In this document: positions 577-62,215 of the stretch, one piece after another
How the letters are laid out: the number at the start of each line of letters is the position of its first letter
Position numbering within the stretch: position 1 is the first letter of the stretch
Source of the DNA: Amoebophrya sp. A120
Lineage: Eukaryota > Protista > Dinoflagellata
Direction: 5' to 3'
Assembly (NCBI GenBank): GCA_905178155.1
Contig: CAJINV010000010.1
Span: 1,819,182-1,883,181, forward strand
Length of the DNA stretch: 64,000 bases
Notes under the pieces: generated by a model
Databases searched by the model: none
Told to the model about the DNA's origin: nothing
Seen by the model: the letters and a program-made list of their open reading frames with translations, nothing else
Made by a program: the position numbers and the translations under genes

Positions 577-3500
577 CTACACCTCTACCCTCGCCAATCG
601 CGTATGCCAGCCGTGGGCAGCAAAATACTTCTCCATCAGTTCCTCCGCGGCTGCCTTGTACCCTGAAGCCGCTTTGTCACCACTCAATTTCGCCGCGTGC
701 GCAAGCAACTTCACCTGCAAACGCGAAAACGCAAATTTTTCTTCGTTCATCCCCGGGATCGTATCCAAGAAAAAAAATTGCGTTTGTGAGGCAGAAATGA
801 ATGCAGAACAGAACTACACGACGACGACACTTTTCGTGCAAGACAGCCCCTGCCCCAGACTCCTCTTTTCTTCATCACATGTGGTTACTTTAAAACATAG
901 GCTAGCTACGCTTTTCACAGAACAAGTTTGTCATGCTGTTCTTGCTGTCAGCCCAGTAAGAGCGTTACACTAGCACAGTTCATTTTTCTTGGATAAACGG
1001 GGCCAGGGAAGGTTTTCGGGGGCTTCTGTTCCAGCCAGTGGCCGGGTCTGAAGGACGAAGAAGCTTTCGGCTTTGGCACTTGATGTTGCGCGGAGTTATT
1101 CAGAACGGAGGTGGATGCTGCTGCTGCACCAATACGTCCTCGTGGAGCTGGTGCACCTCCACCACCTGCTGTCGTTCTTGGAACTATCTTGTCGGTGAGC
1201 AAAACATTCCGCAGTATGTCGGGTTGCAAATGCTGTTTCCGGAACCTCCGTGCTTGGTTCAAAAACTTGGTCGGGCGGATTCTCGAGAGAGAGGTAGTGC
1301 TGGCGGAGTTTGCTTTAGTACTATAATTCGTTGTGGAATTTATTTGGTGAAGATGCTGGTCGTGCTGCTCCAGAGCGGGCTCGTGGAGGTGCACGACAAG
1401 GCTGTCGCTGGTGTCACCCTCCACCATCTCCACCGCAAGATGCGCAAAGTCTTCCAGAAACCCGGTAATTCTCGGCACCGGGGTTGCGAAGTACATGTCT
1501 TCAAAGACCCGCTTCGCGTGGATATTGTGGCGACTGATCGAAGGAGTTGTCAGCTCCCCAAGGCTATGCATTTTTGCAAAAGTCCCGCAATCGTAGTGAT
1601 TGCAGTCATGGATGACAGATCTATTTTTGTACGCTAACCAGCAACATTACAAATTCCATTTTTCACGCTGACCAAATTTGTAATGCGAGGATTTGAACTT
1701 CTACTAGTACGATACTTTTGCAGTGGATAAGCTTCGTCCATCTCCAGGTCTAGATGATCCAGAAAAATCTTCCCCTCCGCCCCAAAAATCCCCCGCAGGA
1801 ATCCTTCCGGCAAGAGCCGCAGGGGTAGGAAAAGAAGATGCTTGCGCTTCTCCTGCGTCAGTTTCTGTTTCGCTTTCAGGAGCGTGGCTGTTTTGCCGAT
1901 GTTTGTCATGTCGCCAAACAAGCTGGCTGTGCGTGACGGAGAAGCAGAGTCGTCTTGTTGTGCTGGTCCTTGCTGGTCAATCGTTACCATTTCGGAGATC
2001 GCGGAAGAAGAAAACGGACTTCCCGCCCTCAAGAAATGCTCCTTGTCCTTCCTTGTTGTGTTCCCTATCGCTTTATCAAATGTAAAAATGTCTGGGTGTG
2101 GAAGATTCTGAGCCTTGTCATGCATGTTTTGCATGGGCCGCAATGTCTGTGATGCACGCCCTAGCATCACAGATTTTTTGAGGGCTTCGCGATGCCTATT
2201 CCGCATGACAAATGCCCTCTCCGCGTACCAAAAATTACATTCCCTTTGCTGCTCATGCAATACAGATTTTTTTGGAATCCAAATTCAGCATCACAAGTTG
2301 CATTCTTCCAGACCCAGACATTTTTACATTTGATAGACTTGCGCCAACGACTCTGCTGGATGGGGCTCCAGTAACCTCCGGATGTCGTGTATGAAAGTGC
2401 ACAAATCCCGCCCCCCCTCATTTGTCATGCAAAATCCCAAATGCAGGCTCTGCCTCTTGGCTCTGTTTGCATGACAAGCTCTGGTAGCTCAAATAGCACT
2501 ACACAACTCCAGTGTCAAAAGATTAACATTTGCCATGCAGAACCGAAACTCTTGCTGATGCTTGTATTGCCGTTCATGCTACACAAATGCGGGCGAGGGG
2601 GAGTTGTGCACTGTCACATCGTGCGAGAGGTCTTCCCGATTAACCCCGAGTTTGCTGGTTTGCGAGTCGAAATTCAAGTCCTTGAAGAGCGCCTGAGTCT
2701 TGTTCCCGATGGCGTTTGGATATGAATCCGCAGACGCGTGGTCGTCCTATCGTACTACTAGTAGAAACTGCGATACAAACTTCTTCAGCATTACGAGTTT
2801 GCCATGCTGATTTAGCTTTAAGAAAAAATAATTTTATGATGCATGATTGTGATTCTAGTACGAGTACGATGCCACATAAATTGCTGCGCCGGATATTGGA
2901 ACGCCTTTGCCAAAATGCCGCCCCGGGATCATCACGTAGTCTTCGAGGGCTTTTTCGTGTGTATCCTATGTAAAACAAACGTCCCCACCCCACAGTTGTC
3001 ATGCAGATTTGCATCTACAGGAACATCTGCAATGCGCATCCGCATGAGAGGACTTTGTAGTGATGTTTATGAGATTTGTAATGCTGTGAACAGGATGAGC
3101 ATGCGTCTTTGTGATGCGGCTGTCCTTGACAAGCCCGACTATACTACAGATGGAAACTTGTCATGCATAACTCCCAAAACTTAGAGATTTGTGTTGGAGA
3201 TTTACCAACTTCACTATGGTGTCGGCGGGACGTTTTTTCACAGGATAGTGTGGTTCCCGGTCCAGTGCAAAAACTCCGCTGTCCATGTTTTTCTCCGCTT
3301 GGAATGAGTCGATCACTCGAGCATCACCAGATAGATCACCCGGCGCTTGTCCTGCCCGTAGTCGAGGGCCTGCAATCGCAGTTTGCTCGCTGTAGAGGTC
3401 CTCTGTTGCCCGAATATGATGTCCTCGTGTAGTTTTTAGCGTGACAACTGCACGGTCGCGATCTGGTCGTCCTGACGAAGTTTTTGTTGCAGGGTCTTCT

Positions 3501-10530: not shown

Positions 10531-11702
10531 TCAAATCCGCCCGCCGTCTTGTCGCTGGGTCGTCGACGGAAAGCCGCCGCCTGTCTGTTCTACCGCAACG
10601 TCAATCAAGTCGTCGTCGTGCACGACTATGCAGTGCAAATATGTAGTCTCAGTAGTCACTTGTGGAAGATGAAGCAAGCAGATGGTTGCCATGACCACAT
10701 CGACTTCTCTCGTCGAGGATGTTTGTAATACATGGCATCTCCTAGCATCAAAGATCTTCTTCCACCGAAGGCTTGTTTTAATCTCTTTTTTAATGCGTAC
10801 TATCCGGGTCGTGCATGAGAAACGCGCCTTCCATGTTGCAGAAGCCAGGCTGTTTCTGTATCTCTTGCTGACACAAGAATACAGATTTTTGGCATTGTCC
10901 AAAGCTAGCATCACAAGTTGAAGTTTGCTCTCATCTTCCAGCACCAGATTATACATTTGCATTGCATAAAGCCGAGCGCATCCGGGGTGTCGTTTTCGCC
11001 CACCCGCTCCCCATCGACCATAAAACGCACCTCGCCAATGCGCAGGCTATGAGACTGCACAACCAGTTTACCTCTTCCTCCGTTGTCATGCAGAAACGCA
11101 ATGATGTATGACGATTTTTTCGTAAGTACCCGGCGGCTACGTGCTGTTTGTCATGCAGATGCTATATACTGAACTGATACTGATTCTGTCTGTGTTTCGC
11201 TTGTTCGTGCCTGCTTCTTCAGATGACATCTTGATGGTTTGAGGGGAGAGATGAAACTACTTCTACTTGTGCACTTTCATAGGTGCCGATCCGCTGGCAG
11301 TAGGCCTCCATCAGTTTTTTCAAAGTCGAATGCTTCTTGATCTTGAAGGACACTTCACCGCCCGTACTGTTCCGCACCCGCAGCTTATGAGAGTGCACAA
11401 CTCCACCTTCTCCTGATTTGTATTGCATGAACAGCAATACAAACACGAGCACACGTGGAGCCTGTGGATGACGAATTGACATTATTCGTGCGCCTAGTGT
11501 AGTACTGTCTGGGGTTGTTCCGGATGCAAAGAATACAACAAGGAAGCACTTGGATTTGGGCTTTTGCATGACAAATGATGCGGAGGGGGACGAGTTGTGC
11601 ACTCCCATACAGCTGAATGTGCGTGGGCCCGCCGGCGCCAGCGTCCGGGTTTTCCGGGGCGGCGGCCGCCGCGGGAGAACCAGAGTCCTGGTCGTCGGCC
11701 AT
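10531..11702 (-). CDS. SUMO: Small ubiquitin-like modifier (SUMO), 4 exons
   Basis: Spliced product ..HIQLRVRNSTGGEVSFKIKKHSTLKKLMEAYCQRIG..RIGEVRFMVDGERVGENDTPDALG..DDDLIDVAVEQTGG matches SUMO/Smt3 motifs including QTGG. Confidence 0.93.
10627..10968. mobile_element. Introner family A (degenerate), SUMO intron 3
   Basis: TATGCARTGCAAAT TIR; TSD decayed; SUMO frame restored. Confidence 0.8.
11048..11281. mobile_element. Introner family C (degenerate), SUMO intron 2
   Basis: TATGARA.TGCACAA TIR; TSD partly decayed; SUMO frame restored. Confidence 0.8.
11386..11609. mobile_element. Introner family C, SUMO intron 1
   Basis: Family C TIR; perfect TSD CAGCT. Confidence 0.92.
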
Positions 11703-11925
11703 TTTTTTTTGGTTTTTTTGATGAGGGCGCAAGGGTAGCTATGTATGACGATATGGAGCAACTGGATGAAACGAAACTAGGTGGAGATTATATCACTGTC
11801 GTTACTATAATCTCCTCCAGAAAAGTGGTGGTCCTGAGGAAGGTTTGTGGAAATCAAAATCGTAGTAGGCGCAATACGAAAGTTGTTTTATTTCAAGTTG
11901 ATATAATACCACCTCTTCCGGGTAG

Positions 11926-13922: not shown

Positions 13923-16900
13923 TTACCCCTCGTCCTCCTCGCCGGCCCAGATGCGTTCTAGCTTCGGAATTTTATTGTACACGAGCTGATTGCTCTCATT
14001 AGATGGATATCAAATGCAAAAATGTCTGGGTCTGGAAACTTGTGATGCTGAGTGGCGTATCAGGAGGAGGCCACAAATGCTGGCGCAGCATGACAACTTT
14101 CTGAGCTTCTAGGTGTTGCCTTTTCTGCATGACAAACTGCGTTTCTGCATGACAGAACAACTGGGCTCTTTGGTAACGTGCATGACAGATTTAAGACTCA
14201 TCCCAGACAAGCATGACAAACATGCACTCTTCCAGACCCAGACATTTTTGCATTTGATAATGGAAAAACCAGTCGAAACGGCATTCCGTACAGCCACAGT
14301 TTCCTAGACACCACCCTGGCCTTCACTTCTCTTTGTATCAAACCTCCGCTGCGGAGGTCGTCGTGCAGGTGGTCGTGTAGTTTTCGTGTGTGTTCCACCT
14401 CCCGTCCCTGCTCTTCCTCTTCCACCGACCAAACGCCCTCGACGACCGGGTGTGTGATCAAAAGATAAGCATGTTGCTCCGTTTCTGCGAGGTCGAGAAA
14501 GTGATTTAGTAAAATTTTTGACGGTTCCGGTTGTTCCCCCACCTGCCGTTGATCATGCTCATGGTCCTCCATAATTCTCGCGGCCGACCACGTCCTTGGC
14601 GCCACGAGCTCCGAGCCGTTCTTGCTGCTTGTTTTTAAAAGTACTTGCAGTTCCGCCGCATTCCACACGCGGCCTTGCACACGTGGTAGCAAAAGGGACA
14701 CATTCTGGACTTGTTTTAACATTTCGGTTAAGGCTTGCCTTTCGTCGGCTTTCAGCGCAGCGCTGTCTGCTCGCAAAGCGATAGTGAGCTGCTGCTTCTT
14801 TTCCTCACTTGCTGGTGATCCTTCTTCTTCCCCTTCCGTCAAAAAAGCCAGCACCAGTTTCTGGTCAAAAAATCCGCTGCGCCTTGCGCAAAGTGCCGGC
14901 CACAGGAAGGACGGCGAATCGGGTCGTTTGACGGTCGTCCCGTATCAAAATGAAAAATCCCCCCTCCCCATATCGAACAGGCAAGTCTCAAAAAATTTGC
15001 AGTGCTGATTTGTGACCACAGATCGCGTCTGTCTTGCAAGAAAGCAACGTCACAGGCTCCGCCCCGTTATGCAGGCGGTTTGTAATGCTCTTGGGCCTAC
15101 AGCATAGACGCTTCTCATGCTAATTGCCTAGGCCAAAACCTCTCCACTCTGGCACGATATGGGCCTGCAGTTCTCTAATGCAATACAAATCTGATTTGTG
15201 TACGCAAATCCAGCATCAGAAATATCGTTTTGAAGATGTGGGGAGGGGGGATTTTTCCTTTTGATATCCCGTCGCGCGCGTTTTTAGCTTCGTACTGTGC
15301 TTTCCGGCTCCACCGTGCGAAGAGGTTCCTGACTGGAACCTCTAGGAGGATCATATCAGCTTTGCAAGTATCACCACGCGGTGGTGGACTTGGACTAGCT
15401 GCGGCAGCTTGTGGTCCAGGTCTTCCGGAATCTCCCTCATCCTTCCCGAGTTCTTCCCACTCCGTGCACGGCGTCCCAGGCGCCTTTTCCCTGAACCGCT
15501 GCACGCGATTTCGCAGGTCCACGTAGGTTTTTTCCTCTTCCTGCATACCAGCGTCAGTTCGCTGCTCTGTATCAAATGTAAAAATGTCTGGGTCTGGATG
15601 AAGATTCTGAGACTTGTCATGCATGTTTGCATGACCCAGGAGGATGTCTGTAATGCACGACCGCGCATCACGCTTTGTGATGCCTACTCCGCATGACAAA
15701 CGCCCTCCCCGCGTAGCACAAATTAGACTCCTCTTGCTGGTCATGCAATACAGATTTTTTTGGAATCCAAGATCAGCATCACAAGTTCCAATCTTCCAGA
15801 CCCAGACATTGTTACAGTTGATACTCTGGCGCAGTCAGCAACTGGTTGACGCCAGAGAGGACCTCTCCGCGAGGGAGCGTAGCAGGGGATGTGGCACGAT
15901 CCTCATCTCCTTTTTCTCCATGCACCTGCTCAAGCACTCGGGAAGCAGCGATTAATTGAAACAAAAACCGGTCGATGATAAGCGCACCTGGCGGTGCAAA
16001 AATGTAGGAGGATAGCTTCGGTGGAGGAGGTGAAGAGGAAAAGAAAACCTCCGACGCTCCTGAGGTCCTCGCGGTCGGTCGCGTGCTCCTGCTCCTGTCG
16101 ATATTAGTTTCATCTGGCGTGGTCCACACAGGAAGTTGTGGAAGTTGCATTTCTGTTCCATATGACCCAGCATGTCGATGGTCCGCAGCACTGTCAACAT
16201 AAGGCTGCATCTGATGCTTGTTCCGCAGAAGACTCAGATCCCCACCCGGGCGGAGGTGAGACCGAGACAACCCGCGAACGCTGGGGCCGCGCAGCTCATG
16301 TTCCGCATGTCGCTCAGACGAGATAGAAGGGGGCGCGAAGACATGCTGACGTTCCGGCGCAAGGAGACCCAGACCTCCCGTAAATGCAGCTCCTGCTCCG
16401 CTTGATGAGATGAAGTCGGAGTATGTAGTAAGAGCGGCCGCGTCGTTCATCTTCATCGTTCCTTGCTCTTGCACTTGCTTTGCCTGGCGCTCGCCTTGAT
16501 GTTCCAGCCTTACGACTTTCTCCAGTTCCCGCATAGCCTCCTTTTCGTCCTCACCATCGCCGAAAGAAAGCACTTCCGCGAACGGGATATTCAGCTCGAC
16601 GTTATTTCTCATCAATTTTTTAAACACGTCGGTTTTGAACGAATCGGAATGTGCTGATTGTGCTTGTTCTCCTCTTTCTTCCCGTCCAGCTACTGCAGCT
16701 GTTGCCCCGAGTAGACGTTCACGCTGTGCTTGTATCCCTTTCTTTGCTTCTCGCCAGTGTGACATGACGTGGATCTCGATTTTCTTAGATGAACCGGACA
16801 CGACGTCATCCATGTTTTCCACTTGCCCCATCTCCCCGAAATTTTGTTTGTACCGAAATGTCTTGTCGTCTTCCTCATTCAACAAATAATATGCCCCCTG

Positions 16901-24597: not shown

Positions 24598-25946
24598 ACG
24601 TAGGTCCTCTCCTCTTCCTGCATACCAGCGTCGGTTCGCTGCTGTTGCGAAGTCAGCAGCTGGTTAACGCCAGCTGCAAGACCAAGGGAGCGCGATAAAT
24701 ACATTTGTTTTTTTTTGAAGCTTGATGATCCACGACCGACTTGTTTCTATATTTCGATCCTGATTTTTTTCATTCTGAACCATGGTTGCGGCAGATCATG
24801 ATTTTTTATTTTGCGACTCATCGTGATGGTGAAACTGAAAATGCTCCACCTCACAAGGATCTTCTTCGTTCGGATCATTCTTTATTTTGACCAGAGAGGA
24901 AGTGGGCTTGTTCAGCTTCACGGAATAAAATTTCGATATATACAATCACAGTTGTCATCATCTGCAGCGGACAAAAGCACTACTGTGCGGCACTGCGTCC
25001 GCCGCAGGCTGCGGCTTCAAACCGCCAGCAAGAATGATGTAGTCTTTTTACTTATGCGATCACTCATGATGTTCATTTTGTTCCACATGGTGCCGATGCA
25101 TCTTCTCGAAAAAGAGCTCCAGGTTTTTTTTGCCCCGTTTGTAGTGGGAGAAGATGACAAATTATGAAGCCGAGAGTTCTTGCAGCACATGTTAGATCCT
25201 GCGACAGGGATACACGACACCATATTTTTTCTACCAGCACAACTCGTACGATTATATGTGTGTCTATTCTGGTAAGCAGATCGTGCTGGCATGTGGCTCT
25301 CTACTTGTGGTAAGTTGATGTACTAGCGAAAATTCATACTCATAGCAGCGGGCTGAAATAAATAAATGGGTGTCTTATCATCACGTGTTGCGGGGGCTAC
25401 GGCGGGAACAAGAACAACTTGATAGGTTGTTACTACGAAAAAAGAATGCTAGTACAGTTCCGGGAAGGTTGCCTATCAGTCTGAATCTTCATACATCTTC
25501 ATCGATATCAATCATATCGACTCGCGACCACGAATGGACCAAAACATATCCTCGAGGGCAGGGTCAAGGATGAAAATGGTATATTAGTTGTAGCTTGCTA
25601 GTTGTAGCAGCTAGCATCGGTGGGTAGTTAGATGGAAGCTAGAAGTAGGTGGGAGGATGAAGAGATCGCTCGCCAAAGGGTCAATTTCAGAATAAAACCG
25701 GGAATATGTGCCGCTGGTGGCGCTACTCGCAGGAGTCCACAAAACATCAAAAGGATTGTACAAAGCAGCAAAACAAAGGACCACCTCCAAGCAGCGCGCA
25801 CTACCATAGATAGGGAGTACCGTTCTCTAACAGCATTTCCATCCAAAATTTTCTATCTCCGCACATTATTGTACAGCGCCTGCTGCTGCTGCACTTGCGG
25901 TGGAACTCCAGCTCCAGCACCCTGCTCCGGTCCGCCCCCCTGTGAT

Positions 25947-28900
25947 TCATTCCTGCGGCGGCGGCCCGGGTTTCTCCGGTTCCGGTGGCGCTTCCGGTTC
26001 CCCGACCTCAGGTGTATGAACTGCAAAAGTATCGCACTCGTATAAATGCATTACAAACTTCCCCAGCATGAGAAAGAAAATTTGTCATGCGGATTTACCT
26101 TAGAAAAAAACTTTGTAATGCAAGACTTGCATTTATACGAGTACGATACTTTTGCACAGGATAAGGTGGTGGCGGCGGCAAATCTTGGGTCCAGTTGTCC
26201 GCAGCCCCTTTGGGGACGGAGGGCTTTTTGTACCCACCGGCGTTGTATCAACTGCAAAAGTGTCTGGGTCTGGAAGATTGCAACTCGTCATGCTAAATCT
26301 GAAGCATGCAAAAATCTGTGTTGCATGATTACCAAACGTCGCCCAGTTTTGACCAAGTCGGGAGGGAGTTTCTCATGCAGGATAGGCATGAGAGAGATCG
26401 CGCAGAATCTGTCATGCTAGGTCCTGCATTCCAGACCTCCTGGGTCATGGAAAAGCTGCATGACAAAGCGCGCATTCTTCCAGACCCAGACATTTACATT
26501 TGATACGTTGAAGGAGATCTGCTTCACGTTCGTTTCCGGCATGTTGCTCCCCGCGACAAAGTATGGATTGCAAAACAAGTATCGCACTCGTATAAACGCA
26601 TTACTCAGCATGAGACTTGAAATTTGTAATGCGGATTTACCTTTAAGAAAAAAATTTGTATTGCATGATTGCCATTACTACGAGTACGATATTTTTGCAG
26701 TGCATACAAAGACCGGCTCGAAATTTTGCCACTGGGGGTTGTGCTTCTCCAGCAACAATTCCTCGTCCAATCCAGCTCCATTTTTATTCTGTGCCTCGAA
26801 CGAGTTGCTCCCGTACAATTTCCGCTTTTGTAAAACCCGTTTCCGCTGTCTTTCCGCCGCGATGCGCGCACCGTGGCTCGCCTGGCACATATCGTACGAA
26901 AAAAGTGTTACAGTTACACCTTTGTAGTGGATTCTGCAACACAAACTTGCTCTGCACTGCAGAGAAAACTTGCAATGCAGAGATCCTGAAGGAAAACACG
27001 CACAAAACGAGGCTCGCATGCCTCTCCAGCATGAGAGAGGCTGTCTGTCTTGCTTGGTCTGCAACACAATGTGTAACTGTAGCACTTTTTTCCTTGCATA
27101 ACACATCGCTTGGAACACGTTACCCGGGATCACATGCTTCGCGGTTTGTCGTATTGCGAGGGAAAATCCCCCCTCCCCAACATATTGCAAAGGACATTTG
27201 TGATGCTGGATTTGCGTACACAAATCGACTTGTATTGCTAGAAGGCCGAAAGACGCACTCGTGGCCTGAATTGCAGGCGATTTGTCATGCTGTTTACCGA
27301 CTTCCAGTTGCCTCCTGTCATGCTGAAGACGCAAGGCTGTCCCGCGCCAGCCAGCACAACAGTCGTCCGCACCTTTTGCTTTCTAGCATGACAACATGAT
27401 TTGCAGTAGCAAATCATGCTACACAAATGCCCGTTTTAGTGTGGGGAGGGGGAATTTTTCACTTCGATATGTCTATCCCCGTTTGTCATATCATCGTCTA
27501 GCTCGTAGAGAAACGCCACGTTCGCCAATGCTTTCTGGTTTGCCAACTTCCCACTTGCCGGGACGACGAATTTCACGAAACCCGCGGCGGAATAGCGGTA
27601 CAAAACCCCCCGTCGGCTGGTTTTTCCCTTGCCCGGCGCTAGGTTCAAGGCCTGCTCGATCTGCTGATAGGTCCGGTCGACGATTTTCGGGTCACAAATA
27701 ATTCCGTACACCTCCATGATATCTTTTTCGATGATATCACAGGAAAAAGCGTCAACGCTAACGGGATTTGTGATGCAGGACCGCATCAAAAAAGGTGCCT
27801 CCTAAATTTGTATTGCATAGCATGCGTTACAGGAAACATTTGTCATGCATAGCTGCAAACTCTGGAAACCGTTAAGGTTAACACTTTTTTGTTTGATAGA
27901 TGATCTTCCTGATCCCACGGGCGTGCGTGCGAAATTTCCCGCACATCTTGAACCAGCGGTAGCAGCCCGGGGCGCGGGTGATGGCGATCAGCTGGGAGAA
28001 AATTTCGGTCAGCACTGGTTTCAGGTTTCCCTGCTGCTTCTGCAGTTGAAACGAGGGATTTTGCTTCATCACGGTCATCATGGCACGGAGGGTGGATAAA
28101 TGCACCAAATTCGCTTCAGCCGACTTGTCATCCGTCGAGTCGATGCAGACAAACATTTCCTGCACGAAATTCGACACCAAGGCTTCGATCAGAACCGGTT
28201 GTAGATCCGGTTTGTCCTTCAGTAATTGCAACGCAATCTCCGGGTGGAGAGCCTTCGCGACCCCATACTGCATGGACATTTTGTCCCACCCTCCGTTTCG
28301 CTGCACTTCCTTCTCGACGTGCTTGTGCTCGAATTGCCCCAATTGCACGCAGTTGCTATCCGGCACCATGTGGAAGACCTTCGCCCGTTGCAATTTGTCG
28401 CAAAAAGCGGGTTTTTTCATGGAAAAGACCCGCAGCTCCCCGGTAAACCACTGGGACCCGCAGCCGCCCTGCTTCACCTTCGTCAACAACGGCTGGTGGT
28501 TGGACGGGTCGTGGCGCAGCTGCTTCAACTCGGACCGGTGCGCTGTCGGTAGGGCGTCGACGGCAACGATGGTGTAGGTGAGATTCGAGAAGTGGTTGTA
28601 GAGGTAATCTTCCAACTTCTTCGCCTCTTCCAAAAGAAACGACGACCGCTCGTGGTAGCTGGGCTGCTTGTTCGCGGCACAGCAGGACTGGGAAATCTCA
28701 ATTTCGATCGCTTCATATTCCTGCATCGGATCTAAGTGTTCCTCGTTCCAATAAGGCGCGTATGGATTGCAAATATGTCTGGGTCTGTAATGCTAAAAGT
28801 GAATCATAGACGCACTGCAATACGCAGCTATGCATGACAAATAATTTGGCTGCCATGTGGTCTTACGTATTCCGCATGGCAAACTACGTTTTTGCATGAC

Positions 28901-31900
28901 AGGCAAGAGGACTTTTTCGTGCCTATGCAGCACAGATTCTCGTCGAGCCATGCCAGACAAGCATGACAAACTTGCACTCTCCCAGACCCAGACATTTTTG
29001 CATTTGATAGAGCACTCAGCATGTTGATTTGGGAGGCGGTTTGATCTGAGGTCTTGTTGTTCAAACTGGAGACGAACCGCATCTGGCTGCCGCGAGCCTC
29101 AATCACAGATGAGTTATGTGTTCCATACATTGTCACTGCAGTTGCAAAATTTCCCGTGGTCGCACCGTAATTGATATTTGGGTTGTTGTTAACATTTGGC
29201 GCTCGCGCTCCTCCTACGTGGTCAAGCATCACCAAATACACTCCTTCAATCGGCGCCATTCTGTCTTCGCCACTGCTTTGACCCGAAACGTTGCCCTGCA
29301 CACGCAAAAACCGCTGCACAACACCCGTCTTCTGCTGCCCACCGCCGACATTCACAAGCACTTTATCCCCTCGGCGGAACACGTTTTTGCGTTCCTTCTG
29401 GTAGTGCTTTATCGAGCTGTAGGACTTCGTCCTGACCGCGTTTTCCAAGTTCCCGAAGGTGGAAGACACGTTGTGTCTCAACGCCGTCAGCGACGGGCGG
29501 TCCTGGAACGGCTGACTGCTCTTTTTGTCGGACACGATCAAATAACTAGGCCCTCCTGCAGGTCTACTACTGGAGAGATCTACGCTGGAGGGTAACGTGG
29601 CGCCAGTACCTCGCGAGGACGCTACTGCTCCTGCTCCACTGCCCGGTTGGTAGCACCGCACAGCGGACCCCTGTACCGCAAGGTCGGAGGGTGCGGCGAA
29701 CTTATTCCGGTCGATCTCGAATTCCCGGTCCAAAACGACGATGAGCGACCCGGGGAGGAAGTCCCCAACCGTCGGCTCTTTCTTGAACAAAGGGTTAGTT
29801 GCGTCGCCGACGTTGTTGTTCAGGTTGCTATCTACTTCCATGCCCTCGACCCCGGTGTTGAAATCCTTGATCCTATCCGCTGGGGAAAAGGACCCGTAGC
29901 GGGAAACCGAGTAAACGCTCGTCACCAAACCGAATTCCACGGCGAGGAGCTTCATCCACAGATCGAATTCGTATTGGGTGGTGGAACTGGAAGTTACCAG
30001 AATTGCCTGCGTGTACTTGGTCGGGAGAAAGGTCGGCTCGTATAACAGTGCACAACTCCCCCTCCTCCTCATTTGCATGGCATGAACAGCAATACAAAGG
30101 CCTGCACACTTGGAGCCTATGCATGAGAAATTTATGTCACGTGGTGTAGTACTGTTTGGGCTTCCGGAGTTTGTCATGCAAACCGTGCCACAGGGAAGCA
30201 CTCGGATTTGGGGTTTTGCATGACAAACGAGGGGGAGGGGGAGTTGATGTGCCCTTTCATAGCTCGCACCGCAAGTTCATCATCCTCTTCTGAATCAGCC
30301 GCCACGACTTCTGGTACAAATCTTCCAAATAGATATGCGCCCGCAGCTCCCCATACGCGTACGCGGGGACGGATTTCGAAAGCTTGATTTTCAACTTCAG
30401 CGTCGACAGCGACTGGTTCGGCTGGATCATGGGGACCACGAAGAAAACCCCGTCACTGATACCGTCATTCAACGGCGCCATCTCCGGTGCGTTGCAGTGC
30501 TGGTATAAAACGTTCTGCGCTGATGTGATGTTCTTTTCGTTCGACAGGTCGAGTAACACTTCTCCCTTCTCCGCATCGTAGAAAACGACCTGATTTGGGA
30601 ACTCCTGGTCGGGTTTGTCCTGTGGGAAAATGGTGTCGGTCTTGTTGTTATGCATTGCAAAAGTATCGTACTAGTATGAATTGCAATACAAATTTCCTCA
30701 GCATGAGAAATGAAATTTGTAATGCGGATTTAACTTGAGAAAGAAATTTGTAATGCATGAATGGGATTACTACGAGGACGATATTTTTGCACAGGATAGT
30801 TGTCTTTCGCCGTTTGGTCCGTTTCCTTTTCGTTGTTCAGACTGTGATTCGCTAACTTGTGGCCGAGAAAGCTAAAGCCGATATTTCCGTTGTGGATCGT
30901 CGTGTTTTTCGCCAAAAACACCTTCACGCCGATCTGCCGCCCGCCTAAGGCGAAGCCCATCGGGAGAGAGGAGATGTTTTTCAACGGGAATTGAATCACG
31001 GTCGACTCCCCCGCGGCCAGGCTGTTCAAACCAAGAAACCCGTTTGCGTTCTGCAGGGGGAACTGGACTGTCATGAGCTGGATGGAAGATTCTTGAAACT
31101 GGTCGAAGTTCTTCTGGTACTTCGTACTCTGGCTGTGATAGTTATCCGTTTCGATGCCCAACTGCCTCCCTTGTAATTTCACCTCTTCCTGAACTATCGC
31201 CGGGTCGAAGTCCGAATTATCCAGTTTGTCCATTTCTATCATTCCGATTTGGTACCGCAGTTCGCCGTCCACGGACACGGCGGTGTTGCTGTCAATCGCC
31301 ATACCCCGCACGGTGAAAACCGCATCCTGGACGGATTGCTCGTTCGCCCCGGCGAGAACCCACTTCCCGGGGATCAACTGCATCATCTGCCGCTGCATGC
31401 TCGGGGTCGGCATTCCCCCGACATTTTTCACCGAGATGTTGTCGACGAAACAGCACTATGGATTGCAAATATGTCTGGGTCTGGAAGATGCCATGCTGTT
31501 TTTGCATGACACAGAAGGTCTGGCATGGTATCCCTAGCTGCATCACAGATTCTATTAAGAAGGTCCTGCAATGCATAGTCCGCATGACAAATCCCGCACT
31601 TTGGTGACAAGAAGTGGGCATGATCTTTTGCTGCCTATGCATGAGAGATTTTTCTTTGTTCTGAAATGCGCATCACAAGTTCGGATCCTTCCAGACCCAG
31701 TAGACATTTTTGCAATCCATAAGCACTGGCCAAACTCGAACACGTTGTCCGGTAAAGTTTGCTATCCTGTGCAAAAGTACTCGCATTGCAATGATGCATT
31801 ACAAATTTTTTTCTTCAGGTAAATCCGCATTACAAATTTTACTTCTCATGCTGAGAAAATTTGTAATGCATTTATACGAGTGCGATACTTTTGCAATGCA

Positions 31901-41663: not shown

Positions 41664-44360
41664 TCATCTACCTCTGATCGTGGGATTTCCTTCCGGCACC
41701 ACCAATCGACGTCGATGTGAAAAATATTGACGGCAAGAACATATCACCGCTTCAAGACGACCGGCTGCCGTAGATGCGCGAGTGGCTGGTCGGTGTTCCA
41801 TAGTGCTATGGAAGTGGAAGACGTACGTAGGAAAGTCTCGGCAAAAAGCTGTCACGGTGGAACTTCTACACAAACGCTGAGCGTGTGGTCCACCTGGCAA
41901 GCCTGGTGGCAACAAGATTTCCATTTTATGCAGCAATAGCTGCAGATGCAAATAGTTTCTACCATCGTGACGTCGAGACGATTTCCCACGACCTGCCACC
42001 ACCAGTTCCATAACTGCATGAGCTTCTGTAAGAGGAGGAAACCATTGCGCATGCGCAGGTTGTCCTGCAATAGACGTTTCTCGGCCCACCTCTGACACAG
42101 CAGCACCAGCAGACCGGCAGGGGAAAGTTCCTTGCGGACGATACGTGCCTGCGTGATGAGGAAGCTCCTCGTCCTGTCGCAGCTGCTGGTGGCGCTGGTG
42201 TTCATCATCTCCTGGCGAAGCCACGAGATGAGGAGTTTCAGCATCATCTTCTTCCCCTGCGCGTTCGAACAAGTCGATGGGAATTTCCTGTTCCAGCACG
42301 ACTTTGCTCGTCGGGTCCAAATACCAGTGCCTTGGCTCAGGCGTGGTAGCAGGAGGCGAAGAGGACGGCGGAGACGGTATTTTTGGGCTTTCTTGAGCCT
42401 GCTCCTGTTGGTCCCGCACCGGACCCGCCTCCGACCACCTGCTCCTGCCACCACTGCTGGGCCCTATATTGAAGGCCAGAACGACTCTGTAGGAAGAAAA
42501 TTGATCTTGTTCCGCAGCTTGTTGCGTTGTTCCCGTCGGATGACTGGCTTGTTCGATTTTGGACGCAGCTCCTGCGGTCTTCCCCGCCTCAGAATGATGT
42601 TCTTCGGTCCCTACAGCGGCCTCCCCCTCCTCCTCCTCCTCCTCGCGGGAAAACATTAAATACTGGTCCTCCACCTCCTGCTCCCGCTCGATATCCGCAA
42701 GTAGCTTCTCGTCGTCCCCGCTTGCTACACTCGGCAGCGCGGAATGCTGGAGCCAGGAAGGAAAGAAAACCACTTCACCCGACCGCGGGTGCAGCAGCAC
42801 CTCTCGGCCAAAGGGCGGCGAAGCCCCGCGGGGGTCGGCGAACCTGAGGACCCCGGAGTTATTATCAGCGCTGACGTAGTACACACCCGAAACGTACTCT
42901 CCAGAGTGTGTGTGTCCGGCGTGCCATCCGACTGCTTCGCTTGCTGTACTTGTTCCTGTAGCTTCACCATCGGGACGAAGAGTTTGCATTTTGTTCATCT
43001 TCCCTACTTGCGGGTGCACACTGAACCAGGAGAACATACTCACGTCAGCGTCTTCAGGTCCAGCATCCGGATCCTCGCCCGCCTCATCTGCGGAAGTTGC
43101 GCTGCCAGGACGAGGACCCGTCACACCACCAGCAAGATTACCTGGCCTGAAGATATCGTAGTTCGCATGCAGTTTCAGGTATCGTTTGGCGAGTTGAATG
43201 ATTGTCTTCCGCAGCCACTGATACTCCGGCAGATTTTTCATCGCAGGCCAGGATGTGGACTTGTTGTTGGCAGGTGGCGAGGAAGATGTAGGCTTGCTGG
43301 AAGCACTGGGACTGGCAGCGCCGGGCTGAAAAGTTGTGGAAGTTGTAGCCCGGTCATTTGACGGGTCCTTCACTTTGTGCAGCTGCAGCTCCATCGGCGA
43401 AACATGAAGAGCGTCTCGCGAAGATGTCTTTCGCTTCCTTTGATTGATACCTCCTGTGGTCCCGGCCCCCAGCACCGCTTGCTCGGCTTCGGTTTCGAGC
43501 CAATCCAACAAGCTTGACAATGAGTCGTCTTGTTCATCTGTGCCTTGTTCTTCAGATATAATTCGAGGCGAAGTTTCTTCGTCTTCCAAGCTGCTTGCCT
43601 TTCCTACCGATGTCGTCGACGACGTGAAGTTCCTCTTTTCAACTACTTTCGCTGCGTCGTATTCGAAAATGGCTTTTTGATAGAAGTAAAACGCGTCATT
43701 CAGCCCGACGTCGTCGTACTGTTGGAGTAGGAAGTTCTTTTGCTCCACCAGAGATCCTAGGTCATGATGATCCTGCTGCCCACCTCCCGCCGACGCGGTC
43801 GTTCCAGATGATGTAGTAGAAACCAGTCTTCGGTGATGCCGTTTCCTCAGCGCGGGTAGGATAGAATCTCTCAGCTGCTGCCATTCCCGGACTGCTGCTT
43901 TTGTGATTTTCTGGTTGAACAGAGTCGCGCGGCCGACGTCGTGGTCAGGTGGTTGTTCATGATTTCGCTGCGACGTTGTAGATGCGTCAGTGTTGTTGGT
44001 GCTTGGCCGCTGAAGACCAGTCTGCTGTTGCGGCTGCTCGTCTAGTTGCACCGGCAACAGCTCAGTCACATTGACGATCTCGATCGGAGTCGGGTACAAA
44101 TACGCGACACGAGAAGTAGACGAAGTAGTTCTTGTTCTTTCTGATTCTGTTTCATGATCGGAGAACGCATGCATTGCTGCAACATCTTCTCCTGGTGCGC
44201 AACAGTAGAGAGGAAAAATCAACGCAGCAAGGCGGACACAAGTAAACAAGGACGAAGTGCTGGCGAACCAATTGACGAGGAAACACATCCCGGACCAGCG
44301 GGCGGAACCCAACGAGGCCATCTTGTGCAGCTGCAAGCCGTTTATATTTACTTTCGACAC
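41664..44360 (-). CDS. Putative 2OG-Fe(II) oxygenase (TIGR02466-like), single long ORF
   Basis: SWFSVH..HTH..VSGVYYV..LRFADPRG..GEVVFFPSWLQH..RVVLAFNI; the likely ATG is near 44321. Confidence 0.8.
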   Translation of the reverse strand: MSKVNINGLQLHKMASLGSARWSGMCFLVNWFASTSSLFTCVRLAALIFPLYCCAPGEDVAAMHAFSDHETESERTRTTSSTSRVAYLYPTPIEIVNVTELLPVQLDEQPQQQTGLQRPSTNNTDASTTSQRNHEQPPDHDVGRATLFNQKITKAAVREWQQLRDSILPALRKRHHRRLVSTTSSGTTASAGGGQQDHHDLGSLVEQKNFLLQQYDDVGLNDAFYFYQKAIFEYDAAKVVEKRNFTSSTTSVGKASSLEDEETSPRIISEEQGTDEQDDSLSSLLDWLETEAEQAVLGAGTTGGINQRKRKTSSRDALHVSPMELQLHKVKDPSNDRATTSTTFQPGAASPSASSKPTSSSPPANNKSTSWPAMKNLPEYQWLRKTIIQLAKRYLKLHANYDIFRPGNLAGGVTGPRPGSATSADEAGEDPDAGPEDADVSMFSWFSVHPQVGKMNKMQTLRPDGEATGTSTASEAVGWHAGHTHSGEYVSGVYYVSADNNSGVLRFADPRGASPPFGREVLLHPRSGEVVFFPSWLQHSALPSVASGDDEKLLADIEREQEVEDQYLMFSREEEEEEGEAAVGTEEHHSEAGKTAGAASKIEQASHPTGTTQQAAEQDQFSSYRVVLAFNIGPSSGGRSRWSEAGPVRDQQEQAQESPKIPSPPSSSPPATTPEPRHWYLDPTSKVVLEQEIPIDLFERAGEEDDAETPHLVASPGDDEHQRHQQLRQDEELPHHAGTYRPQGTFPCRSAGAAVSEVGRETSIAGQPAHAQWFPPLTEAHAVMELVVAGRGKSSRRHDGRNYLHLQLLLHKMEILLPPGLPGGPHAQRLCRSSTVTAFCRDFPTYVFHFHSTMEHRPATRASTAAGRLEAVICSCRQYFSHRRRLVVPEGNPTIRGR

Positions 44361-46021
44361 CCCTGAGAAGAATATACTCGCTGTGCTGGGTACTCCACCA
44401 AGGAACTGGAGCTACTTTAACCTAAAAGTCTGTTTCTGACGCACTGGCTCATCACTCGCTCACAAATAGTCAGCACTGTGGCAAAAATCTTTCAAAACGT
44501 GAGGACGATCTGCCTCGCTCAATCCGTGAAAGCAGCGATCTTCGCCAGCAAATGCTACTAGCGCTTAGCCGTCGTGGGAATAGAACTGGAACAAGAACAA
44601 AATACACAATTATCTTCATCCGCCCCGGCTAATCGGTAAAATTGGTTACTTTCCAAAGCGGAAAGCACAGGAACATGCTCCATTTGAAGTCGGTGGCGCC
44701 ACCGCTTACCGCGCGATCACCCACAAAGCCGGCCCGTAGTGGCGAAATCGAAAAGCAGCCGGGCCCCGCCAAGAAAGTCAAAACAAGCCGGCGCGCAGCC
44801 CGAAGACCAGGGCATCTGGCGCAGCCGCGGCAATAAGCGCGCGAGAGCTTCGGCCGGCGCGCCAGCATTGATGGGGTGCGTGGCCCTTTCTCCTCGGACG
44901 CGGGCCCCCCCCGCCAAGCAATAGCGGCAAGCTTACCGGCAAAGCCCTGCGCCAACTAGGCGAGCCCAGGCAATAGGGCCTGGCACACAGCACCAGAAAG
45001 GGGCAGAGGGCCTGCCGTGGGCAAGCCGGGGCCCCTATTGGCGCGCCAGCCTACCAGCCGGGGTAGCGGGCGGAACCCCCACAGACCCCGACGCACATCG
45101 GGGCCGCCGGGCGACGATACGAAGGAGCGCAACCGACGACGGCGAGCGGCGCGCCGCCCGCTCTCGAAGTACTGACGGCTCCCACGTGCTGCACGTAGCG
45201 AAATCGCAGGGCAGGACCGGGCGAGGCGCGTCCTTATTCAACAAATTCGCCAAGATGCGCCGCTCCGTCAACGCGTCGATGCTGCACGGGACTGCGGACG
45301 TAGCCAGTGCAGCGCGGCCCAATGTTTTTGAGGCTAACGGTTGCGCCAAGGTCATACTGCTTGCGCAGCGCAGGTTTCCTGCAGTGCCATGCTCAGCGCA
45401 GATTTTCTATCCAGACTCTTAACTTAATCATTTCGAATGATGTTCTCTCACAAGATATTTCCAAAAAAATTTCTCTCTTGTTGTCTTGAAGAGAATGCTT
45501 AATCCTGAAACACAGCAACTCCGGCTCTGTTCGCACTTTGCTCCCACGATTGAAAAATGCTCAGTCACAGACACACCACTGAGCAGGAAGATGGTCCAGC
45601 AGCAACTCAACGCGCTGACGGAACAGAACTTACTACGCTCAACTGCAGGAACAAGAAACCACACGGCCGCCGAAGCATCCGTGCGGGAGGATTCGCTTCT
45701 TGTCAAGCTGAAGCTGTGACGATTTGCGAGTTTTATTTTGTGATCTCTCTTCCTCGGAAGATGTCTTCTCCCGCAGAAGGCGTTGCGCGTCGACCTTATG
45801 TTTTATTTGCTCATTCGAAGATACCATAGGTTTGCTCCAGAGAGGAGTAGCATGATTTTTGCTCAATTCAATTCGCCTCAACTACATCCACGACGACGCA
45901 TACTAGCGTATCACTTCTACGTGGAAGTAGCAGTCACGCCTTTCAAACTCCTTTCGTGCATTCCTCACGTCGACCAGGAGCACTTCTGCTATCGCTTTTA
46001 GTTTAAAAACAAGTCGGCACT

Positions 46022-53692: not shown

Positions 53693-56600
53693 TCAAAAAC
53701 AAGAAATACGTTGATCACGAGCTGCAGCTGCCCCGGCAACCTGCTCCTGCTGGTAAAAACGAGTAGCAGATTCATGTTGGTCCACATGATGGCGCTGTTG
53801 ATAGTTTTCGCCGCCACATTGCTCAACTTGTTCACGCCGACATGATGTTGATGCGCCAGCACTACTACCTCCTAGCCAGCACGATTTCCCCTCCTCCAAA
53901 ACTTGTTTTTCCAATTCTGGTATCAAATGTAAAAATGTCTGGGTCTGGAAGAGTTATGCTGTTTTTGCATGACACAGAAGGGGCGGCATGGAAGCTCTAG
54001 CATCACAGGTTTCGAGAACCTTCCGCAATGCCGAATCCGCATGACAAGTCCCCTATTTTGCTGACAAAAAGTGGGAGCTTTTGCTACGTATGCATGAGAG
54101 ACTTTTCTGTGTTCTGAAATACGCATTACAAGTTGCATCCTTCCAGACCCAGACACTTTTGCATTTGATATCCGGATTTTTTTCCAGTACTCCCTCTTCC
54201 AGATATATGTAGTCAAACCGGAAATCTTGCTTCAACCGCTGGCGCCAGGCTTTTTCGTGGTCGAAGTAGCGGTAGTCTCCCTTCTCAAATTCACTGTTGC
54301 ACTCCCTCGGCTCCGACTCCCGCTGAAACCAGAGATTGTAAAGTTTGTGGTAGCGCCAACCCAATTTTTCCAGCTGCGCCGCGGCCAGCAACTGGTCGTG
54401 GCTGTTTTTTTGGTAGTAGAAAACGAAGAAAAGCGTGTCCAAATCGTATTTCTCTTGCTGATATGCATGGCAAAAGCATCGTGCGTAGTATAAATCGCAT
54501 GACAAATTTCATCTTCAAGAAGAAAATGGGAATTAGAATTTGTAATGCAAAATTAGGTACGAAAGTAGATTTGTCACGCATGCCTGCACTTACTAATAGT
54601 ACGATACTTTTGCACTGCATAGCTGAAAATGCTCCTTCGTGAGGATGTTTTGCGGGATCCTCGGCTGAGTCGACGGGTACAGATGCTGGGGCTGCTGGAT
54701 CAACATCGCGCTTGTTGTCCTTTGTGCTGCCTGCTGCTGATGCATTGGAAGATTTGTAGAACTTGCGGTGTGGGTGTAGGGAAACCTGATGGATATGATC
54801 ATGAAAATAATCGTCGTGCGAACCAGTCGTCTGAAAGGGGAAGTTCTTTCGGAACAAATTGAAAAAATTTTCGAGATTTTATAGATAGAATGTGCACGAC
54901 AGGACCGGAGAATCTTCATAAAGTGGAACTACAACATACGAACAGAAATAGCTACCAAGAAGTCTACCAAGGGTAGTATCGGGGGACGGGCATATGGTTT
55001 TCGGTAGAAGCACTCGGACGGACCTTGGAGGTGGTCGCACTCGCAGCTTCGTTTACGAAGACTTGTCGCCCCTTATCATGAGCTTCTCTGCCGCAAGAGC
55101 TGCCACGTCGGAGTCCAACATCTTCCGCTCCAGCATTGTTGAAGACAACGGCCGGTGCATCACGCATGTCCACGTCACGTCGGGAGCTGCCAGGAACTCC
55201 TCGTCCTCCACTGGTGCGCCCACCATACTCTGGCCCTGGCGCCGCATTTTATGCATTGCAAACATGTCTGGGTCTGGAAACTTGTAATGCATGGCTGCGT
55301 ATTGCAGTGCCACTGCAATACGCAGCCGTGCATGACAACGTTACGTATTCCACATGACAAAGTACGTTTTTGCATGAGCATGACAGGTAAGATTGCCTTT
55401 GCGCGGCTATGCAACACAGATTCTCGAGTCATGCCAGACAAGCATGACAAAAATGCACTCTCCCAGACCCAGACACATTTGCAATTCATACATGTCGTCC
55501 GACGACGACATCCTGCTCATCCCAATCCTGTGCAAAAGTATCGCATTCGTATAAATGCAAGTCTTGCATCACAAATTTTTTTCTCAAGGTAAATCAGCAT
55601 CACAAATTTCATTTCTCATGCTGAGGAAATTTGTAATGCATTTATACGAGTACGATACTTTTGCAGTTCATAATCCCAATCTGAATCCAACTGAAAATCG
55701 TCCGAGGAAGTGTCCGACCCCGAGTCCGTTCGGAACACTGGATCCGCCGCGAGGTCCTGTTCCCAGATGATATCGGGATCGGAATGGAGGGTGTCAGTTA
55801 GGGGCGACGAGGATGCACGCGGGGCGGCGCTTTTTGATTCGTCGCGTACGTGTTGCTGCTGATCGTAGTACAACTTCCTCGCGCAGAAGTGGTCTTCCTG
55901 GTGGGCAGTACCCCGCTCAAGAAGGTGCTCGCCCTCGACGTTGTGCTGAGAGTTGATGTCCTTCTCCTTCATGTAATACAACCCACTGCCCGTTTGTCTA
56001 CTTTGTGTGACGGCTTTATGGCGACCCCCTGTAGTTTCCTCCGTACCTCTTCCTCGAACACGAGAGCCATCGCCTTTGCTTTTATCCCGTAGGAAGCCGT
56101 CCTCGTTGTTCTTTCTCACCTGCTCTTTGTAGTCGCGATGCTGTACTGTACTCGCAGTACCGCGAGGAGCAGGACCCGGGTGATCATGCTGATGATGTTG
56201 ATTCGTCGCAATAAACATGGACTTGGTTCGCCTCGTCGAGTAGCTGTCATCGTAATCGAGCATACTGTGCAGACTCAAAATCTTCGGCTCGGAGAAGGTT
56301 TTTGTCGTGCCAGCAGCGTCGAGATTTGTCTTCACGTAGTGGTCGACGTCGACGACGTTCTTCGTGCTAGATGAAAAATGCTGCTTGCTCTTATTTTCGA
56401 AGTAGCTCGCATGCCCAGCCTGAAACAACTCGAATTCCCTCTGGTTTTTGCAGCGGAAGAGCAAAGATCCGGATCCGGGCCGCTTGATTTTTTCTTTGTC
56501 GGTGTTTTCTTTAACGTCGACCGGAGCTGCAGTAGAGGACGAACTATTTGCTGCAATTCTATCTGGATTCATTTCTGCACTTGCTGTGGAAGTCCTCGCT

Positions 56601-61033: not shown

Positions 61034-62215
61034 TCACGCCCCAGTTCTCTGCTGCGTCGTCGCTCCCCCGCCACCTCCGCTACTTTGATTCGCCACGTTC
61101 AGATACGGTGTGGGGTCGAATTTGTCCGGGGAAAAATTGGTGCAGTACTCGTTAATGCCGAACATTTTGATCACTTTTTCCAGAATGTACGGGTTCCGAT
61201 GGTCGCTACTCTTCATGACCGCGTCGTTAAAGTGCTTGCCCTGGGCTTTCAGCGCGAAAAACTTTTCTACCCTTTCCTGTAATTGCGGGTCCGGCGACCC
61301 TGGCGGGGAGGGGGGAAGCTTGATGTGGTCTAAATTATCGATGTAGTTTTCTACTTCCTGCTGTTCGTCCAGAGTGGTCTGGTGCGGGTCTACTACGGCA
61401 AAGGATGCAGCAGCAAGTTTTTGTCGCTTGTGCGAAGGCGTGTTTTCTACTACCGACGGCGGTGGTGGTTGACCTCCCCCTCCTGCAGCATGAGTAGTAG
61501 AGCCGTTTTGATTGAAACTTTTAGCACTCTTGCTGGTGCCTGTAGCTGCGCCATTACTTCTTGTGGTATTAATATTTTTTCCTCCTTTAGCATGTGGTGA
61601 AACACCCTCGTCGCTGTTTTCGGACTCTGGGGAGCGGATCAAGTCTTCCCGGGGAAGATCCCGCTGTTGTCGCTTTAAGTTGTTCATATCGGCCGTCGCG
61701 TTACTAGCCGTACTACGACCACTCGGCGGTGCACCAGCTGCCAGAGTACTAGGCTGCCGCGCAGCAGGAGGAGCAGCCTGCTCTTCTTCCTCCTCTTCTT
61801 CTGGTGTCATGACCACCACTTGCTGCATATGAAAGCCTCAGGTTGGAAATCCTCAAATTGGAAATAATTTGTAATGCAAAAAACGACTCCAGTTGAAGCG
61901 CCATTTGTAGTCGGCGCATGACAAATTTCCCGGGCGCTCAAAACGTGTCTGTCATGCTAGTTAGGCAAAGGGGTAGCCTTCTCTCGTGCTAATCAGCACT
62001 CCAATTCTTAACCCGTAGCAGGACAATAGTCGGCTTCCATTGCACCCTCTGCAATACAGTCTTTTTTGCGTCGCATTTCATGCATCACAAATTATTTCCA
62101 CGTTGAGGATTTCCATTCTGAGGCTTTCATACTGCATCGCTTCTTTGGTCAGGGGCTTGAGCTTCGGGTGCTTCTCCACCTTGTCGCTCTTTTCTTCGTC
62201 GCTGGACCAGTCCAT
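61034..62215 (-). CDS. HCNGP / SAP30-binding protein-like, 2 exons
   Basis: LPPSPPG..LQERVEKF...HFN......HRNPYILEKVI..FGINEYCTNF....FDP is the HCNGP signature; exon 1 MDWSSDEE. Confidence 0.85.
61828..62131. mobile_element. Introner family F
   Basis: TIR TATGAAAGCCTCAG..TGGAAATCCTCAA; perfect TSD CTGCA. Confidence 0.93.

Follow-up and report, generated by a model that had tools for sequence, protein, structure and literature searches.

Private introner elements in a gene of Amoebophrya sp. A120 and in two neighbouring homologous fragments

We have analysed a 64,000-nt stretch of the genome of Amoebophrya sp. A120, a syndinean dinoflagellate (contig CAJINV010000010.1, positions 1,819,182 to 1,883,181; hereafter the window, with coordinates counted from its first letter). 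A minus-strand gene, here called gene A (13925..20442), is accompanied in the window by two fragments homologous to parts of it, B (23909..24673, minus strand) and C (25950..26542, minus strand). Gene A and both fragments are interrupted by introner elements, which are repeated sequences with inverted ends and 5-bp flanking repeats of a kind already published for this genome. Across 328 bp of homologous exon (A compared with B and A compared with C), five private elements were found and none is shared; four are in the fragments and one is in gene A. We lean towards the reading that these differences arose by separate insertions.

The relationship between gene A and B was established by BLAST of the window on itself and by alignment with the elements removed. 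Positions 15443-15569 and 15829-15855 of gene A pair with 23909-23938, 24266-24318 and 24603-24673 of B over 154 bp without a gap. The exon stretch of gene A (15443..15855, minus strand; amino acids 1342-1392) is interrupted by element A1 (15570..15823, minus strand), which is 254 bp long, flanked by the target-site duplication (TSD) ctctg at 15565-15569 and 15824-15828, and missing from B. The relic of the exon in B is split into its three pieces by B1 (23939..24260; 322 bp; TSD acggc at 23934-23938 and 24261-24265) and B2 (24319..24597; 279 bp; TSD acgta at 24314-24318 and 24598-24602), both of which are absent from gene A. A preliminary description of this locus had reported one element private to the gene and two private to the copy; its coordinates hold and the differences are reciprocal. 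It had also held that each empty site retains a single 5-mer. This is exactly so for B1 and B2, where gene A carries one acggc and one acgta, but the empty site for A1 in B reads ctgtt and agrees with ctctg at only three of five bases. In length, all five empty sites (those of A1, B1, B2, c1 and c2) fit one 5-mer.

The exon pieces of A and B differ at 11 of 154 bases (92.9% identity), with a synonymous divergence (pS) of 0.144 and a nonsynonymous divergence (pN) of 0.052. The exon can therefore not be called near-identical, as it had been, and the very fast turnover proposed for it was overstated given a synonymous divergence of about 0.14. The three intron changes counted in about 160 bp remain as three insertion-site differences within about 154 bp of exon, with intron status backed by RNA for A1 only.

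Transcript evidence was drawn from two sets of contigs, X3 and X5, that are presumed to be RNA; no run listed as containing the sequence is recorded as RNA, and the X3 contigs behave as RNA in that introns are missing from them. Four X3 joints in gene A (14002>14260, 14937>15267, 15564>15824 and 17355>17511) each omit exactly one element plus 5 nt, with a positional ambiguity of 5-6 nt. Removal of A1 is represented by 15564>15824, which skips 259 nt with an ambiguity of 5 nt. The other three spliced elements, all on the minus strand, are 14008..14259 (TSD atgga), 14943..15266 (TSD tcccg), which belongs to the family of B1, and 17361..17510 (150 bp; TSD tcttc). A fifth joint, 17935>18347, removes a non-canonical intron of 411 nt (17936..18346, minus strand) that has CT..AC borders on the sense strand and no flanking repeat, and that is a degenerate relative of the B2 family. 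When the four element joints and 17935>18347 are applied, and these five RNA-supported non-canonical introns are thereby taken out, open reading frame (ORF) reconstruction gives a single frame of 1702 codons from 20442 to 13925. Three raw RNA runs under the same species label (X9-X11) contributed 3, 1 and 1 reads on 13000-25500.

In a protein-database search with the exon, the last 281 amino acids of gene A were 100% identical to P0001, which is named 'unnamed protein product [Amoebophrya sp. A120]' in NCBI/nr. P0001 was the sole match when the 99-amino-acid exon was used as the query, and the 515-amino-acid exon had zero protein-database matches in the near and longer length classes searched. 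Gene A looks under-annotated, in that the database model consists of 281 amino acids of its last part only and the main body is seemingly absent; its non-canonical introns are perhaps the cause.

For B, neither X3 nor X5 contains a joint across B1 or B2, which is a blank and not evidence that B is silent; several bins near B are without RNA cover in these sets, at 21757-23007 and 24676-25092. One X5 contig of 71 nt at depth 4 is exact over 23868-23938 and stops at the B1 border, which is too little to call transcription. The X3 joints 15022>24058 and 24368>24575, together with many short joints within B1 and B2 in the DNA contig sets X1 and X2 described below (sides of 20-27 letters), were set aside as cross-alignment among element copies. 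An X1 joint at 23933>24261 (side 25, depth 32.9) was considered as an empty allele of B and rejected; since its left side begins exactly at the start of the A/B homology, it is read as the contig of gene A.

A1, B1 and B2 share TAT...ATA inverted ends and perfect 5-bp flanking repeats. The elements start with TATCAAATGTAAAAA, TATTGAGAGGAAAAA and TATCCTGAGTAAAAA, respectively, and their terminal inverted repeats match at 21-24 of 25 positions. The window was scanned for TAT...ATA pairs whose ends are complementary at 20 or more of 25 bases. This yielded 29 pairs, three of which are inner palindromes of a 149-bp family and have a 0/5 flank match. Among the remaining 26, the flanking 5-mers are identical at 5/5 positions in 15 pairs, at 4/5 in nine and at 3/5 in two, where a 5/5 match is expected by chance in 1 of 1024. 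The data support the 5-mer as a target-site duplication and as a property of the whole element class. The preliminary description had made the same identification, and the perfect 5-bp flanks and the exact empty sites in gene A bear it out. For comparison with the five private elements in 328 bp of exon, the window as a whole averages 39 elements per 64 kb.

Canonical borders were found in none of the eight correctly bounded elements, for which GT-AG, GC-AG and AT-AC were considered in six registers. Folding predicted hairpins for A1, B1 and B2 with minimum free energies of -120, -167 and -125 kcal/mol (z -10.1, -10.7 and -9.3). The predicted z values of the seven longer elements lie between -6.4 and -10.7, and that of c3, an element beyond fragment C, is -3.7. 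In the seven longer elements, 18-25 of the first 25 nt are predicted to pair with the last 30 (20-24 in A1, B1 and B2). With regard to families, B1 is 82.6% identical to the spliced element 14943-15266 of gene A, and B2 has relatives within the window at 2959-3247 and 58513-58792. A further element, c2 in fragment C, aligns to A1 in reverse over 267 columns, so that the two represent one family in opposite orientation, and the RNA contigs show both to be removed from minus-strand transcripts. Element removal seems independent of orientation, which suggests that a symmetric hairpin may be recognised rather than linear intron signals. Summed DNA contig depth in X1 over the ends of B1 and B2 (23940-24643) reaches 327,907 compared with about 30 for unique neighbours, although a summed contig depth is not a copy number. 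Such a depth, three to four orders of magnitude above that of the neighbours, fits very high-copy element termini.

Fragment C is homologous to the exon stretch 19171..19344 (minus strand) of gene A and is interrupted by c1 (26015-26163; TSD aggtg) and c2 (26246-26505; TSD cgttg), with c3 (26562-26706; TSD caaag) beyond it. Both c1 and c2 are absent from gene A, whose empty sites read cggtg against aggtg for c1 (4/5) and cgtca against cgttg for c2 (3/5). An X3 RNA contig that had been aligned to gene A bears the three private letters of C and continues into C, with c2 and c3 missing. These two elements are working introns of an expressed locus; the contig did not cover c1. A and C differ at 10 of 174 positions, and nine of the ten differences are synonymous (pS 0.22, pN 0.007), which indicates that both copies are under protein-level constraint. 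For intron presence and absence in paralogous coding exons, A/C is a sounder case than A/B. The window contains relatives of c1 and c2 at about 92% identity. The neighbouring expressed locus that holds C has a frame that terminates in ...PPPQE and a stop. We also observed that within the large exon of gene A about 560 bp is directly repeated at 82% identity (18579-19107 and 19341-19890), and that the stretch copied into fragment C sits exactly between the two repeat units.

B had been described as the duplicate of a gene. It is instead a fragment in a repeat mosaic and not a gene copy: its homology to gene A is limited to the 154-bp exon piece and a 155-bp piece of the 3' untranslated region (UTR), and after conceptual splicing its longest stop-to-stop frame is 80 codons. 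The 3'UTR piece (23729..23897, minus strand) lies 8 bp from the exon relic and copies 13319..13473 (minus strand) of gene A with one mismatch and one 14-bp indel. Its source lies about 450 nt or more downstream of the gene A stop near 13925 and within an RNA contig. In gene A the exon and 3'UTR pieces are 1967 bp apart (about 1.4 kb in the mRNA), whereas in B they are 8 bp apart with their sense order kept. A tblastn search of the remainder of the window with the 1702-amino-acid product returned the B and C patches and nothing else, so the neighbouring gene does not qualify as a full paralogue.

The surroundings of B consist of repeats. In the self-comparison of the window, an exact 50-mer brackets the B block at 23681..23730 and 24834-24883 and occurs again at 21730-21779. 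The stretch to the right of B, 24675-24887, resembles 21517-21783 (80-93%). A 32-mer is found at 22844-22875, and tandem GTAAATTCC-like repeats are found at about 22037-22285. The two pieces of B are unequally diverged from gene A, with 1 mismatch in 155 for the 3'UTR piece and 11 in 154 for the exon piece (Fisher p 0.003), which implies that the B block is not a single neutral copy of one age. Two further observations concern the 3'UTR piece: the 14-bp indel disrupts a 9-bp palindrome that is present in A, and the source stretch has a sub-threshold match to the C/D-box small nucleolar RNA family RF01212 (24.4 bits against a threshold of 44, E 0.12; 13352-13454, minus strand).

Support for the assembly at B was assessed with two sets of short-read DNA contigs, X1 and X2, which come from one sample that is possibly the assembly's own. 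Exact B-specific contigs of 97 nt (23868-23964) and 283 nt (24571-24853) occur in both sets, at depths of 24.6 and 35.7 in X1 and 52.6 and 41.9 in X2; neighbouring contigs of 1207 and 1183 nt have depths of 31.7 and 43.6. The former contig starts in the UTR piece (30 nt), crosses the 8-nt linker and a 33-nt exon piece, and ends 26 nt into B1; the latter takes in 27 nt of B2, an exon piece and flanking sequence on the right. Under a 31-letter rule, 24673|24674 is the one junction that counts as strictly bridged, the other B junctions having 26-30 letters on the shorter side. Positions 23711-23728 are covered by no contig, and over the 58-bp exon piece that separates B1 from B2 the contig check was swamped by element copies. 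Further left, over 23300-23647, the X1 and X2 contigs show 5-6 differences from the window and are about 2-3 times as deep as their neighbours; to the left of B, a repeat may have been collapsed or polished over in the assembly.

A1, B1 and B2 are, in our assessment, copies of known A120 introner elements whose differing positions are most likely due to separate insertions after the fragment was copied, and we hold this reading with somewhat more confidence than doubt. B would be a copy of gene A, partial or rearranged, that consists of an exon piece and a 3'UTR piece with the exact 50-mer on either side. Independent landings would then have placed A1 in A, B1 and B2 in B, and c1 and c2 in C. 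In the transcript, the whole element is predicted to fold into a long hairpin, the terminal stem of which would put both exon ends side by side, and the splicing activity may be guided by this hairpin and not by linear signals.

Insertion is favoured because c1 and c2 have relatives (~92%) that are closer than the host patch with its pS of 0.22, and because more private elements lie in the copies (four of five) than in the working gene (one of five), a pattern that relaxed selection on redundant copies would give. It is also favoured by the published account of non-canonical introns as strain-specific and arisen after speciation (Farhat et al. 2021, PMC7789003). Several points weigh against this reading. 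Precise loss would leave an identical single 5-mer, so that the 5-mer fits gain and loss alike. At three of the five empty sites the letters do not match the duplication of the filled copy, which simple recent insertion would not predict. The gap in divergence between UTR and exon pieces calls in addition for conversion, a constrained element or a different donor. Of the three elements in the A/B comparison, removal from RNA was seen for A1 only, leaving B1 and B2 as putative introns, and the assembly support for B is partial, from DNA contigs that possibly derive from the assembly's own sample. Exact-pattern scans of metagenome contigs for other strains, with cores of 41 nt (exon) and 38 nt (UTR), gave zero matches.

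The alternative that survives best, though we judge it unlikely, is that the elements are ancestral and were lost precisely, B1, B2, c1 and c2 from gene A and A1 from B, by replication slippage between the 5-bp repeats with the aid of the hairpin or by recombination with spliced complementary DNA (cDNA). A hairpin flanked by direct repeats is a classic substrate for slippage deletion, and every element here is a strong predicted hairpin between direct repeats. Loss would leave behind exactly one 5-mer, as observed, and the substitutions are enriched at and beside the sites. In the stretch 17511-26014, B1 and B2 are the only elements detected besides the degenerate 17936-18346, which is easier to understand if the two were inherited with the exon fragment. 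Yet loss requires four events in one functional gene compared with one gain, and removal of B1 and B2 from A through cDNA should also have taken A1, 44 bp away, unless A1 arrived later. The close window relatives of c1 and c2 (~92%), nearer than the synonymous divergence of the host patch, also speak against loss, as does the picture of recent, strain-specific gain given in PMC7789003.

We consider it quite improbable that B was copied from processed gene A RNA, or by template switching, after A1 had already been spliced out, with B1 and B2 as later insertions. An RNA-mediated origin would mean that the absence of A1 from B needs no event at the DNA level. It would suit the precise removal of A1 in RNA and the joining in sense order, 8 bp apart, of exon and 3'UTR pieces that are 1967 bp apart in the gene. 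The exon/3'UTR join matches no RNA-supported splice, however, no poly-A tract or other mark of a retrocopy was seen at 23729, and the two pieces differ tenfold in divergence.

Another reading is that the exon piece of B came from an unseen paralogue, or that the pieces were patched by ectopic conversion at different times, in which case the A/B comparison over-counts changes; we regard this as just as improbable as an RNA origin. The unequal divergences (1/155 for the UTR piece, 11/154 for the exon piece and 10/174 for C) fit a different donor, as do the mosaic flanks with the exact 50-mer in three places. A 1939-nt X1 contig that is exact over 23729-23897, with just its first 169 letters matching there, points the same way. 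Against it, each piece has two copies only in the 64-kb window, and no further protein with this exon was found in the database, a weak argument given that gene A's own exon is also unannotated there. Finally, the scenario that the preliminary description had named as its own refutation, namely that misassembly of a second haplotype or strain of gene A produced B and the differences are allelic, is very unlikely: the uncovered left junction at 23711-23728 and the possible origin of the supporting DNA runs from the assembly's own sample would allow it, but A and B share 154 and 155 bp only, with unrelated flanks on both sides where an allele would be collinear, and both X1 and X2 contain exact B-specific contigs at neighbour-like depths, similar to that of the A-type empty-site contig (32.9 in X1).

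The differences between A and B are not evenly spread. At the three sites, eight of the 11 fall in an interval that runs from the 5-mer to +12 nt to the right on the plus strand, which is upstream on the sense strand; the permutation p is 0.006 for this interval, chosen post hoc (0.004-0.03 for other sizes), and the sample is small. In addition, three of the five empty sites are changed inside the 5-mer relative to the filled copy. The differences in fragment C are mostly ordinary synonymous ones, which weakens the signal. That introner insertion (or excision) sites are local hot spots of mutation is therefore a doubtful proposition at present, and the clustering is a weak lead on the link between introns and rapid evolution and not a result.

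Elsewhere in the window, the 50 ORFs scanned yielded no Pfam domain of a transposase or integrase, and an Rfam scan of the window gave zero families at the gathering score. Pfam domains in other minus-strand ORFs (41667-44411, 54056-54508, 61037-61837, 11222-11776 and 30733-31455) include 2OG-Fe(II) oxygenase, NOT2/3/5 C-terminal, HCNGP-like, SUMO/ubiquitin-like and DUF7932.

The elements described here resemble MITEs (miniature, non-autonomous transposable DNA elements with inverted repeats) in being short and non-coding, with terminal inverted repeats, a target-site duplication of fixed length, multi-copy families and empty sites in homologous DNA. They are unlike MITEs in that those with RNA evidence, A1 among them, are removed exactly from RNA; to our knowledge, such removal is not known for ordinary MITEs. 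Neither an autonomous partner nor a transposase domain was found in the 50 window ORFs scanned.

The closest match is with the introner elements of A120 itself. The Amoebophrya genome paper (Farhat et al. 2021, PMC7789003) gives a share of more than 60% for non-canonical introns and sorts 29,850 repeated introner elements into 1,954 families. The A120 elements are described there as having inverted repeats of 8-20 nt, composed of TAT, a less conserved run of seven bases and, last, three or more A, and direct repeats of 3-5 nt across their borders; a hairpin is predicted to join the exon ends, and the mechanism of removal is given as unknown. Our elements are alike in inverted-repeat grammar, which A1, B1 and B2 follow to the letter, and in 3-5 nt direct repeats, predicted hairpin, non-GT/AG borders, multiplicity of families and, by database name, genome. 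There is no difference in kind; this locus adds pairs of filled and empty sites. PMC7789003 is hesitant on transposase-mediated mobility, and the word 'pseudogene' occurs in its text 0 times. Later surveys treat A120 introners as diverse transposons and score target-site duplications (PMC9860276, PMC12130899). A search of the main text of published papers found no empty sites between paralogous fragments in Amoebophrya.

Introners of Micromonas, Aureococcus, Polarella and Symbiodinium (Gozashti et al. 2022, 2025; Roy et al. preprint 10.1101/2020.10.14.339549) are alike in that transposon insertion makes the intron and the duplication overlaps the splice junction. They differ in having GT/GC/GA-AG spliceosomal borders, for which no register exists here. 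The nonconventional introns of euglenids (PMC11282704) share non-canonical borders, terminal pairing that joins the exon ends, TSD-like junction repeats and an unknown removal machinery. The euglenid motif of CAG at +4..+6 and CTG at -8..-6 (PMC11282704) is absent here, where on the sense strand CAA or CCT stands at +4..+6 and the ends read UAUCAA... and UAUCCU.... Euglenids are also a different lineage from the host.

For this genome, the elements are thus already known together with their repeats and odd splicing, and the locus provides an illustration and not a new system. Its value lies in the filled and empty pairs within one genome, which are the cleanest evidence of a true target-site duplication, on a point where the original paper was cautious about mobility. 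The five private elements in 328 bp hint that redundant or decaying copies gather elements faster than a working gene. A genome-wide comparison of paralogue pairs could date insertions, look for losses and test whether the sites are mutagenic. If hot spots at introner sites were general, they would offer a direct mechanism for the published link of non-canonical introns with rapid protein evolution in Amoebophrya.

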